Virus record (IMG/VR): IMGVR_UViG_2531839667_000007
Source: a virus
Lineage: Duplodnaviria > Heunggongvirae > Uroviricota > Caudoviricetes
DNA length: 36,911 nt
Strand: one strand, 5' to 3'
The notes beneath the pieces are model-generated. The model saw only the letters and a program-made list of their open reading frames with translations, was not told where the DNA came from and searched no databases. A program made the position numbers and the translations under genes. Of the stretch, positions 9,832-11,453 are shown in pieces (position 1 is the first letter of the stretch; each line of letters begins with the position of its first letter).

Positions 9832-9910
9832 TCAATAAACTGCTTCAATCCGTATAAGCTTCGCAAAGCTGTATCGCGAGGCGAAACGCAAGTTTTTTTC
9901 GCACAAGGAA

Positions 9911-9933
9911 GCCACCGGAAGGTGGTTTTTTTG
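9911..9933 (+). terminator. rho-independent terminator, candidate tR'
   Basis: CCACC-GGAA-GGTGG hairpin followed by TTTTTTT, about 80 bp after Q. Confidence 0.6.
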
Positions 9934-10055
9934 TGTCCGCGATATACAGTAGCGCAATAAATTCGCTGGTGGTTATTAATACCGTTCTTTCAGCTTGCTG
10001 GCTTTTTCGACAAGAGTTATTGGTGTGTCACGTTAACCGGAAAAGGGAAAAAGAC

Positions 10056-10253
10056 ATGCTAAAACAGCAGGATATGACAGAAACCGCCAGAGTGGTGTTT
10101 AATGAATTAAGCGTTACCGAACCGGCGACAGTCGGGGAGATAGCGCAGAATACTTACCTTTCACGCGAACGCTGCCAGTTAATACTGACCCAGCTGGTTA
10201 TGGCGGGTCTGGCAGACTATCAGTTCGGTTGTTACAGACGCCTTCCGCAGTGA
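10056..10253 (+). CDS. small winged-helix protein, PapI/FaeA-like (65 aa)
   Basis: ATG with AAGGGA SD; segment TVGEIAQNTYLSRERCQLILTQLVMAGL resembles PapI/FaeA HTH; tentative. Confidence 0.45.
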   Translation: MLKQQDMTETARVVFNELSVTEPATVGEIAQNTYLSRERCQLILTQLVMAGLADYQFGCYRRLPQ

Positions 10254-10267
10254 AGGCTTTTTTATTT
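10240..10267 (+). terminator. rho-independent terminator overlapping the small gene stop
   Basis: GCCTTC-CGCAGT-GAAGGC hairpin followed by TTTTTTATTT. Confidence 0.5.
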
Positions 10268-10403
10268 GTGGTAAATGGGCGGCTGGTGGGTGTTAGGGGC
10301 ACCCACCAGCCATCTGCTCATGCGTTGGGTTCACAAGCAAACCTCAGGCCCACTGCTTTGCGCAAAAGCAGAATGAGCCTATCAGAGACAGGCTTAATGA
10401 TCC

Positions 10404-11453
10404 ATGCTTAATACTGTAAAAATATCCAGTTGTGAGTTAATCAACGCCGACTGCCTGGAATTTATCCGGTCGTTACCCGAAAATTCTGTTGACCTGATAG
10501 TCACGGACCCGCCGTACTTTAAAGTGAAGCCTGAGGGCTGGGATAACCAGTGGAAGGGCGACGATGATTACCTGAAGTGGCTGGACCAGTGTCTGGCGCA
10601 GTTCTGGCGGGTGCTGAAACCTGCCGGAAGTCTTTACCTGTTCTGTGGTCATCGCCTGGCATCTGATATCGAAATCATGATGCGTGAACGCTTCAGTGTG
10701 CTGAACCATATTATCTGGGCGAAGCCGTCCGGACGCTGGAACGGATGCAACAAGGAAAGCCTGCGGGCGTATTTCCCCGCCACAGAGCGCATTCTGTTCG
10801 CGGAACATTATCAGGGGCCGTATCGCCCGAAAGATGCCGGGTATGAGGCGAAGGGCAGGGAACTGAAACAGCATGTGATGGCCCAGCTGATTTCTTACTT
10901 TCGTGATGCACGCGCGGCCCTGGGGATAACGGCAAAACAGATTGCAGATGCCACAGGAAAGAAAAACATGGTGTCGCACTGGTTCAGTGCCAGTCAGTGG
11001 CAGCTACCGAACGAAAGCGATTATCTGAAATTACAGTCGCTGTTTGCCCGGGTGGCAGAAGAGAAACATCAGCGGGGAGAACTGGAAAAGTCCCATTACC
11101 AACTGGTCAGCACATACAGTGAGCTGAACCGGCAGTATATGGAACTGCTGAGTGAATATAAAAATTTGCGGAGGTATTTCGGTGTGACGGTGCAGGTGCC
11201 GTACACCGATGTGTGGACGTATAAACCGGTGCAGTACTATCCAGGGAAACATCCGTGCGAAAAACCGGCAGAAATGCTGCAGCAGATAATCAGCGCAAGT
11301 AGTCGTCCTGGTGATCTGGTTGCGGATTTTTTCATGGGGTCGGGTTCAACGGTAAAAGCGGCGATGGCACTGGGGCGTCGTGCGATTGGTGTTGAGCTGG
11401 AGACCGGACGTTTTGAGCAGACAGTCAGGGAAGTTCAGGATTTAATCGTTTGA
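10404..11453 (+). CDS. orphan DNA methyltransferase, amino-MTase beta class (N6-adenine or N4-cytosine)
   Basis: 349 aa; VTDPPYF motif near N-terminus and DFFMGSGST motif near C-terminus; no restriction enzyme gene adjacent. Confidence 0.85.
   Translation: MLNTVKISSCELINADCLEFIRSLPENSVDLIVTDPPYFKVKPEGWDNQWKGDDDYLKWLDQCLAQFWRVLKPAGSLYLFCGHRLASDIEIMMRERFSVLNHIIWAKPSGRWNGCNKESLRAYFPATERILFAEHYQGPYRPKDAGYEAKGRELKQHVMAQLISYFRDARAALGITAKQIADATGKKNMVSHWFSASQWQLPNESDYLKLQSLFARVAEEKHQRGELEKSHYQLVSTYSELNRQYMELLSEYKNLRRYFGVTVQVPYTDVWTYKPVQYYPGKHPCEKPAEMLQQIISASSRPGDLVADFFMGSGSTVKAAMALGRRAIGVELETGRFEQTVREVQDLIV

Follow-up and report, generated by a model that had tools for sequence, protein, structure and literature searches.

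A perfect inverted repeat lies just upstream of an orphan DNA methyltransferase gene in a 36,911-nucleotide (nt) stretch of viral DNA (IMG/VR virus record IMGVR_UViG_2531839667_000007; the whole stretch is here called the window), a lambdoid prophage of Escherichia coli that resembles Shiga toxin (Stx) phages and is stx-negative. We find that this repeat is one stem, P1b, of a structured RNA leader of the methyltransferase gene, and neither a DNA operator nor a terminator. The leader is apparently undescribed; it is strongly constrained and probably bistable, and the alignments support two mutually exclusive folds, each with covariation, the first of which (fold A) would mask the start region of the methyltransferase message. 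A model in which the methyltransferase is gated by Q-dependent read-through of terminators and then by a bistable translational RNA switch is, judged from these sequence comparisons, the probable explanation of the region, which as part of the same model would form the promoter-proximal end of the late operon and carry an M.EcoGII-type cassette. An earlier sequence-only reading had described the known cassette correctly; its distinctive interpretation, which combined a PapI-like protein with DNA methylation, is unsupported.

Two covariation-supported folds of the methyltransferase leader

The arms of the repeat are perfect over 12 nt (10281-10292 and 10300-10311, with a 7-nt spacer) and form one of only three perfect arm pairs of at least 12 nt with a spacer in the window. 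The sequence-only reading had given a 10-bp repeat at about 10282-10311; it was right that the repeat is perfect and lies upstream of the methylase, and short in its extent, since the arms run from 10281 to 10311. Relatives were collected as 80 loci, one genome per species, with the methyltransferase alignment as the query. In loci of the Enterobacteriaceae type, where the methyltransferase is 63-79% identical, the spacer between the stop codon of a small upstream open reading frame (ORF) and the methyltransferase start measures 147-154 nt, and the leader stands directly upstream of the methyltransferase family in every such locus. Averaged over pairs, the leader is 79.6% identical, the methyltransferase nucleotides 68.5% and third codon positions 44%, and the leader exceeds the third positions in 496 of 496 pairs. 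A covariance model of the leader returns one match per locus in 56 genome loci (70-161 bits), always on the + strand and abutting the methyltransferase ATG, and scores at most 17 bits on the opposite strand. Among viral contigs, a methyltransferase with the DPPY motif follows 113 of the 115 testable leader copies, the other two being internal deletion derivatives. The leader is also present, unchanged, with unrelated genes upstream in 18 genome loci that lack the small ORF; it therefore belongs to the methyltransferase, and the small gene is accessory. Loop length differences of one nucleotide rule out that the leader is coding.

No family of Rfam 15 reaches its gathering score in the leader (the best is a generic hairpin, P26, with 24 bits against 36), and the S-adenosylmethionine (SAM) and S-adenosylhomocysteine (SAH) riboswitch classes of Rfam give no match. 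A search of the literature on the Q-stx region and on M.EcoGII regulation found nothing on the small ORF or the leader.

Fold A came from RNAalifold, run on 53 distinct sequences aligned with MAFFT without regard to structure. Its pairings are AUGGGC with GCUCAU (P1a), AGGUCA with UGAUCU (P3) and AAGCG with CGCUU (P4), and it includes a P1b of 12-13 base pairs (bp) and a variable linker. Helices P3 and P4 cover positions -16 to -1 before the methyltransferase AUG, and in the structural ensemble positions -13 to -1 are mostly paired (unpaired probability 0.1-0.3), with the A-rich start of the coding sequence open; in 30 of 31 loci there is no Shine-Dalgarno sequence within 20 nt of the AUG. Across the 53 sequences, 93.1% of the alignment cells assigned to fold A are paired, as against 30-42% when the partners are slid, and 17 pairs show double changes, as against 6.1 ± 1.6 in shuffled alignments, a count that none of 500 shuffles reaches. 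With 84 distinct sequences the paired fraction is 94.9% and 19 of 41 pairs are compensatory; ten of these lie in P1b, where 10 of 13 pairs thus carry compensatory double changes. Covariation specific to fold A is seen in P2a (CG 59, UA 9, UG 5) and in P4. One viral contig (L262) has, in place of P1b, a complementary sequence that differs throughout. At three positions G.U outnumbers every other pair, and at a fourth it is frequent; this fits an RNA made from the + strand and is contrary to a DNA palindrome. For most sequences, fold A has the lowest free energy.

These data bear directly on whether the repeat is instead a DNA operator, bound by the winged-helix product of the small ORF or by a helix-turn-helix segment of the methyltransferase itself, with autoregulation as in C-protein/SsoII-type control. 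The perfect 12-bp palindromic arms do lie between a small winged-helix gene and the methyltransferase gene, and the centre of the enzyme holds a helix-turn-helix-like segment (a weak HTH_3 match at residues 167-195; see also PMC11551740). But the arms vary compensatorily and are wholly replaced in three loci (L262, L053 and L078), whereas the helix-turn-helix of the methyltransferase and the recognition helix of the winged-helix protein are conserved; the G.U pairs that dominate several positions would be A.C mismatches of a DNA palindrome on the other strand; the covariance model is strongly strand-specific; and conservation runs for 90 nt past the repeat in a pattern of paired strands. C-protein/SsoII-type systems, moreover, combine a palindromic operator of conserved sequence with a cognate restriction enzyme, and here there is no nuclease gene. 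We regard an operator as very improbable.

An all-against-all covariation scan placed the strongest pair of the alignment outside fold A: the base immediately 5' of GCUCAU pairs with the one immediately 3' of AAGC (C-G 34, A-U 21, U-A 18, U.G 7). With its invariant neighbours this pair makes up an alternative helix, Palt, that is incompatible with P1a and P4. On the MAFFT alignment 91% of the Palt cells are paired, as against 15-44% in slid controls, and 22 cells carry double changes, as against 5.8 ± 1.8 in shuffles. When Palt is forced, RNAfold gives a coherent fold B in nearly all sequences, with the pairings UGGGC/GCCCA, UUCGCU/AGCGAA and GUGAGC/GCUUAC and with P1b and the top of P2 as in fold A. 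Fold B is a three-way junction (Px/P1b/Palt) that leaves CUGAUCUAUG single-stranded; its free energy exceeds the minimum by a mean of 4.2 kcal/mol (range 0-12.8). Its three specific helices are 91.7% paired, as against 28-44% in slid controls. The six strands common to both folds coincide exactly with those blocks of the alignment that hardly vary. Strands under a double pairing constraint are expected to be near-invariant in just this way, which explains the better conservation of the leader relative to the gene.

Several other candidates for this stretch were tried and rejected. The repeat is not a terminator: ATCTGCTCATG, which is no U-tract, follows the stem at 10281-10311, and the terminator scan is silent there. 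A sigma-70 promoter within the leader, with TGTGAAAAT as an extended -10 element, is called into question by the critical -11 position, which is G in about 40% of the sequences. A 5' helix of TGTGA with TCACA is unsupported by RNAalifold. A conserved upstream ORF was dismissed on three grounds, namely a length that varies from 1 to more than 42 codons, loop insertions and deletions that are not triplets, and several Xenorhabdus leaders without an AUG. An AUG at 10275, at the base of P1, does open a mini-ORF (MGGWWVL-stop, window 10275-10298) in 30 of 84 leaders, and MDGWWS-stop in Photorhabdus; it has tandem tryptophan codons and its stop lies in the hairpin loop, and in two divergent leaders its first base is G or U (GUG/UUG). 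Pairing of the leader with the short RNA behind Q, with an STnc100-like RNA or with the tRNA region is no better than in shuffles (z 0 to -1.4).

The methyltransferase and the proposed control of its synthesis

The gene behind the leader is, by sequence, that of an already known enzyme: it belongs to the M.EcoGII family of Stx-type lambdoid prophages. The sequence-only reading had given its length and the order of its motifs correctly; TDPPYF at residues 34-39 and FFMGSG at 309-314, together with the match to PF01555, define the beta-class order of DPPY, target-recognition domain and FxGxG in a 349-residue protein. It is identical at 338 of 350 positions to a machine-read M.EcoGII sequence (supplement of PMC11551740), and because several of the mismatches (at least 4) are evident errors of optical character recognition, the true identity is about 97-98%. 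M.EcoGII and M.EcoGI, from prophages of E. coli O104:H4 (Murray et al. 2018, PMC5778455), share with it the 349-residue length, the DPPY-target-recognition-FxGxG layout and the status of prophage-borne orphans. The window enzyme differs from M.EcoGII at seven or eight residues, and three of these differences fall on near-invariant positions. The passages of that paper covered here describe an enzyme that methylates adenine whatever its context, in double- and single-stranded DNA as well as in RNA, whose expression is toxic and slows growth, and which is not expressed in the native lysogen; they propose that it overcomes host restriction after prophage induction, name phage 1720a-02 as the carrier of a close homologue, and make no mention of upstream terminators, the small ORF or a leader RNA. 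Phage 1720a-02 is 93.6% identical to the window in nucleotide sequence. No nuclease gene is adjacent to the methyltransferase, whose neighbours are DUF968, RusA, the Q-like gene and tRNA genes, so the orphan status claimed at the outset stands; the anti-restriction role also suggested for it finds support in the 338 of 350 identical residues and in what the passages of PMC5778455 say of M.EcoGII. Non-specific activity and silence in the lysogen, which are known for M.EcoGII, are by analogy presumed for the window allele.

In the model that we favour, transcription from the late promoter would halt at 9912-9932 and again at 10240-10267 unless the polymerase carries Q, as the architecture of the region suggests; the presence of two intrinsic terminators behind Q, part of the sequence-only reading, is confirmed at these positions. 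A transcript that reached the methyltransferase gene would begin with the 137-nt leader, whose default fold A would hide the start region: P1a would stack on P1b, and P3 and P4 would close over the 16 nt before an AUG that has no Shine-Dalgarno sequence. Fold A would form first during transcription, because P1a can pair before its competitors have been transcribed. Fold B would re-pair the same strands and free CUGAUCUAUG, permitting translation, if it is the passage from A to B that controls it. Candidate triggers are a metabolite, a protein of phage or host, which might be the winged-helix protein by analogy with Com of phage Mu, and processing of the 20-bp P1 by an RNase. Late in lytic growth the enzyme would then, as the literature suggests, hypermethylate replicating phage DNA, and progeny DNA would escape restriction. 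In the lysogen the methyltransferase would have to stay off, because the enzyme is harmful.

More tentatively, and by analogy, the leader may represent a new class of translational ON-switch for a toxic, promiscuous DNA/RNA methyltransferase, in which an aptamer-like fold B would be stabilised by a small molecule or a phage factor, perhaps the winged-helix protein; we hold this to be possible rather than likely. The add adenine riboswitch is a bistable translational switch of the ON type, in which a three-way junction and a start-sequestering fold compete for conserved shared strands. The likeness of the leader to add-type riboswitches lies in the competition of a fold-B junction with a start-masking fold; it differs from them in matching no Rfam aptamer and in a start without a Shine-Dalgarno sequence. 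The closest functional parallel appears to be com-mom of Mu, together with the non-specific adenine methyltransferases that lie behind com homologues in Mu-like prophages (PMC3299994, PMC6483171): there too a harmful late anti-restriction gene has its start masked by messenger RNA structure, a small regulatory gene lies directly upstream, and the lysogen is silent. There is no homology between the systems. Com is a zinc-finger RNA-binding protein, whereas the small protein here is an acidic winged helix; the Mu-like methyltransferases are of the alpha class and this one is of the beta class; and a single stem-loop there contrasts with a 137-nt two-state leader here, many loci of which have no small gene.

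A number of observations weigh against the model. Kinship among the leader sequences may inflate the shuffle statistics. The covariation of fold B lies mostly in one pair (plus 57/77), since its other positions are invariant, and helix Px, being invariant, is uninformative on covariation. The leaders of Xenorhabdus and Photorhabdus are shorter (85-107 nt) and keep only P1, and the leader of the window has a lower score, 128 bits, with one mismatch each in P3 and P4. Between Q and the methyltransferase gene a consensus scan of the + strand detects no sigma-70 promoter, so that the late promoter pR' and the dependence on Q are read from gene order only. The window enzyme carries three substitutions, P161Q, P230S and H232Y, in the linker and target-recognition region, at positions where at least 90% of 17 diverse members of the family have P, P and H; because of these differences its activity is presumed. 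Pseudogenes occur in the same prophage of identical relatives, and to judge from these and from the substitutions the copy could be inactive.

Some of these points would also fit a single static element that serves processing or stability, in which the 52/78 covariation is a tertiary contact and the signal for fold B thus comes from a lone tertiary pair. The 20-bp P1 could then be an RNase III site, or a 5' stabiliser left after RNase E cuts the AU-rich UGUGAAAAU between the hairpins. Indeed, P1a and P1b make up a helix of about 20 bp with an internal loop, with a single-stranded A/U-rich stretch and a hairpin upstream; P1 is the sole part kept in the short Xenorhabdus and Photorhabdus leaders; and the fold of lowest free energy is in most sequences fold A. 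What such an element does not account for is the second register, in which the shared strands are complementary well above the slid controls (91.7% against 28-44%): a tertiary singlet leaves the complementarity of the flanking GCU/AGC unexplained, whereas the near-invariance of all six shared strands matches the prediction from dual pairing. A static leader is to our mind somewhat unlikely.

The short leaders may mean that P1 is the functional core, or that a second type of leader exists. In the Xenorhabdus and Photorhabdus loci (L056-L077, L080 and L082-L084) the small gene, the promoter-like box upstream of it and the methyltransferase are kept, and the leader consists of a GUGAAAUGG flank and the P1 hairpin. 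In a further viral contig (L095, IMG/VR contig 3300029042_000245) a recombination breakpoint falls immediately past helix P1; the small gene and P1 are kept, and the rest of the leader and the methyltransferase gene are replaced by AT-rich foreign DNA.

The substitutions at near-invariant positions, the several pseudogenes of identical relatives and an empty stx site could alternatively mark the cassette of this prophage as a decaying remnant without present function. Against this, the ORFs are all intact, the 2.9-kb block that holds the cassette is 100% identical in several unrelated E. coli lineages, the leader still reaches 128 bits, and the lysis and terminase genes are intact. We consider decay improbable.

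If the reading of the leader as an ON-switch is true, the methyltransferase is made only in a cell committed to lysis. A conserved two-state leader would explain how a lethal, non-specific methylase is carried safely, with its expression tied to lytic growth. The cassette is present in most complete E. coli genomes, exactly where pathogenic strains have the Shiga toxin genes. M.EcoGII is in wide use as a reagent to map chromatin and the contacts of proteins with DNA, and it is a template from which writers of N6-methyladenosine in RNA are engineered; of its natural control, the passages covered of the characterisation paper say only that it 'is not expressed' in the lysogen (PMC5778455). The leader would also add a new family of structured RNAs from phages, and it would offer a testable lambdoid parallel to com-mom of Mu.

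The small winged-helix protein

The small ORF upstream of the leader is a real coding gene, with identity to relatives of 0.8-0.9 at codon positions 1 and 2 and about 0.45 at position 3. AlphaFold2 models its 65-residue product as a winged helix of the order H-H-H-beta-beta (confidence score pLDDT 93.3). The family is narrow, with 61 representatives among 1.84 billion clustered proteins, all from enterobacterial prophages; a scan of viral contigs returned only identical E. coli copies and hence no added diversity. Pfam gives only sub-threshold matches to TrmB and MarR. The top 50 Foldseek matches are winged-helix domains of MarR, IclR and O-methyltransferase proteins, with OhrR/MarR among the best solved structures, and the best viral structural matches have generic annotations or none. 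Among solved structures, the folds closest to the small protein are winged-helix dimerisation domains at the N terminus of SAM-dependent O-methyltransferases (RedM, PigF and DsyB). This modelled likeness, together with the acidity of the protein, may hint at binding of protein rather than nucleic acid, or may be coincidence.

The sequence-only reading had likened this protein to PapI/FaeA. The winged-helix ORF is real, as said there; the resemblance is one of generic fold only. Genuine papI and faeA-family genes were fetched from plasmids and their profiles compared with that of the small protein: hhalign returned a probability of 71% over 43 columns, the helix-turn-helix core, at 19% identity, an unspecific score at the level expected of two unrelated winged helices. 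The FaeA family of Pfam (PF04703) is unmatched even at E<=1, PapI is not retrieved by a profile search of the PDB and is absent from the top 50 Foldseek matches in the PDB, and in an alignment comparison the signatures YQARYYL (recognition helix) and PLRRG (wing) are missing. The two groups have in common a length of about 65-77 residues and the winged-helix fold. They differ in charge, typical members here having an isoelectric point of about 5 and FaeA-like proteins one of 9.5-10.2, and in setting, a phage late operon here as opposed to a fimbrial operon with paired GATC sites. Since Pfam, the PDB profile search, Foldseek and hhalign all fail to indicate a specific relationship, membership of the PapI/FaeA family is rejected. 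The small protein is a generic winged helix, an accessory absent from many loci.

In a pap-like epigenetic switch the small protein would act with the methyltransferase as a PapI/FaeA-like co-regulator that reads methylation at GATC or another site; the sequence-only reading had suggested a methylation-dependent switch. Besides the fold and the hhalign score, such a switch could claim the GATC found at -7 to -4 of the methyltransferase start in almost all relatives. Yet the upstream partner of this GATC is GGTC in 38 of 53 sequences, which makes a G.U pair in RNA and no Dam site; a non-specific methyltransferase, as described in the passages of PMC5778455 covered, is ill-suited to site-specific epigenetic marking; and 18 of 56 loci have no small gene, in addition to the unmatched family, the missing motifs and the acidic rather than basic protein. 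The switch is largely refuted, and we give it hardly any credence.

A different role for the small protein, suggested by analogy, is that of the trigger, a Com-like activator of translation that would bind the leader RNA and favour fold B, or that of an acidic antidote that would bind the methyltransferase and restrain it in lysogens. Its gene is the direct upstream neighbour, at a fixed distance, in 38 of 56 genome loci and, among viral contigs, in 100 of 113, and the leader and methyltransferase follow 69 of 71 copies of it, an order that mirrors com-mom of Mu and the com-linked adenine methyltransferases of Mu-like prophages (PMC3299994, PMC6483171). The gene has its own promoter-like box and terminators on both sides; the protein is acidic, and its nearest folds include, as noted, dimerisation domains of SAM-dependent methyltransferases. 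In two genomes, moreover, loci without the small gene coexist with loci that have it (Kluyvera, L032/L050; Rosenbergiella, L049/L040). On the other hand, about a third of the genome loci (18 of 56) keep an unchanged leader and the methyltransferase without the small gene, the protein has no homology to Com, and the linkage could merely reflect inheritance as a module. We think such a role unlikely. A moron is an add-on gene with its own promoter and terminator, and the small protein could be the product of an unrelated moron as well as an activator or an antagonist of the methyltransferase.

Transcription layout and prophage context

Table 1. Coordinates, within the window, of the features discussed
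Feature	Coordinates	Strand	Details
Q-type antiterminator gene (DUF1133)	9280..9831	+	PGAP start 9280; GTG at 9268 a possible ORF start
Intrinsic terminator 1, at the tR' position	9912..9932	+	CCACC-GGAA-GGTGG (9912-9925) and T7 (9926-9932)
Promoter-like box	9994..10031	+	CTTGCTG, 17-nt spacer, TATTGG (relatives TATCTG/TACATG), then TGTGTCAC
Gene of 65-residue acidic winged-helix protein	10056..10253	+	phrog_331, function not assigned
Intrinsic terminator 2	10240..10267	+	GCCTTC-CGCAGT-GAAGGC (10240-10257), then TTTTTTATTT (T6ATTT)
Structured RNA leader of the methyltransferase gene	10267..10403	+	137 nt; covariance model R1, 128 bits here
Helix P1	10275..10321	+	P1a 10275-10280/10316-10321; P1b 10281-10292/10300-10311
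Alternative helix Palt (fold B)	10313..10341	+	10313-10318 with 10336-10341; 6 bp including invariant neighbours
Domain 2 of fold A	10328..10403	+	P3 10328-10333/10398-10403; P4 10335-10338/10392-10395; enclosed hairpin P2 ~10347-10379
M.EcoGII-family N6-adenine DNA methyltransferase gene	10404..11453	+	WP_000935529.1; 349 residues; PF01555 E 1.4e-44
Three phage tRNA genes	11503..11752	+	CAT (ileZ-like), Arg-TCG and Arg-TCT; ARAGORN, Rfam, PGAP
Terminator behind the tRNA genes	11767..11794	+	terminator scan; empty stx insertion point (11790/11796) follows

The gene that precedes the region is, by sequence, that of a Q-type antiterminator. Its DUF1133 product matches PF06576 at E 8.5e-105 in Pfam (PF06530 weakly); against phrog_753, annotated 'anti-termination protein Q-like', the E value is 2.8e-75. 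Segments at its N and C termini are distantly related to the Q21 chains 6p18 and 6jnx (E 1e-5). Q, pR' and a terminator make up the canonical late cassette, and the position of terminator 1 fits it (bioRxiv 10.1101/651190). The features of such a cassette are a Q-family gene directly upstream, the terminator at 9912-9932, and the holin, lysozyme, terminase and portal genes downstream; for pR', which in such cassettes goes with a sigma-dependent pause element and a Q-binding element, there is a candidate found by eye only, TTGCAA (9818), 17 nt and TTCAAT, then TATAAG. As in lambda, phage 21 and the Stx phages (bioRxiv 10.1101/651190; PMC7547250), a strong intrinsic terminator comes about 80 nt or less after a Q gene, with late genes next, and the block occupies the stx position of Stx phages. 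The window differs in having a second terminator and an independent-looking small unit before the first late gene.

Terminator 1 begins about 80 nt past the Q stop codon, and RNA folding lengthens its stem to 16 bp with A/U flanks. In the hairpin of terminator 2 lies, here and in relatives, the stop codon of the small ORF (loop or 3' arm). A ribosome completing the small ORF would cover this hairpin, so that translation of the small gene could lower termination ahead of the leader. In relatives, a corresponding hairpin that differs in sequence, and whose U-tract is often weaker, immediately precedes the leader, also at loci that lack the small gene.

The promoter-like box lies 35-75 nt upstream of the small gene and has the consensus CTTGCTG-17 nt-TAYNTG-TRTGTCAC. 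The 49 distinct relatives that have it range from E. coli to Xenorhabdus, and 47 of them show a TTGCTG-TAYNTG spacing of exactly 17 nt; a strong terminator lies upstream of it in nearly all of the 49, and it is missing where the small gene is missing. From the conserved box, the preceding terminator and the joint loss of box and gene, the small gene looks like an insulated unit with a weak promoter of its own, if the box does act as one. The -10-like hexamer of the box does not end in the usual T; this points to a promoter that depends on a factor, or to a regulator site.

Several complete genomes, among them strain D1 and O55:H7 DEC5B, carry the block from 9200 to 12100 (2.9 kb) with 100% identity. 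Of 5426 complete E. coli genomes, 3586 hold part of it, the median being two places per genome, and it also occurs in 317 phage records, mostly of Stx2-converting phages; in Stx phages the block of small ORF, methyltransferase and tRNA genes sits between Q and stx. In DEC5B the order is dicB ... hokD, DUF968, RusA, the DUF1133 protein, the 65-residue ORF, the DNA methyltransferase and three tRNA genes, followed by iraM (on the opposite strand), holin, lysozyme, terminase and portal. The three tRNA genes travel together with the methyltransferase cassette. Local blastn places the 1.3-kb stx2AB segment of the Stx2a phage WGPS2 between 11790 and 11796 of the window, the flanks being homologous at 93% (left) and 81% (right); the stx site of the window is therefore empty.

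Just past the tRNA genes and the empty stx site, positions 11829-12018 (+) match the small RNA STnc100 (RF02076) in Rfam, at 132 bits against a gathering score of 47 (E 2.6e-30), and the match ends at a terminator-like hairpin (11988-12009). An iraM-like anti-adapter gene (12044-12379, - strand) occupies the slot where Stx phages hold other cargo, and a perfect 12-nt inverted repeat with a 10-nt spacer (12041-12074) lies at its 3' end. The immunity region contains a perfect 16-nt inverted repeat at 2569-2605 (TACCCACGGGTATTTA / TAAATACCCGTGGGTA, 5-nt spacer) and a related imperfect repeat at 3086-3142; both are probably repressor operators.

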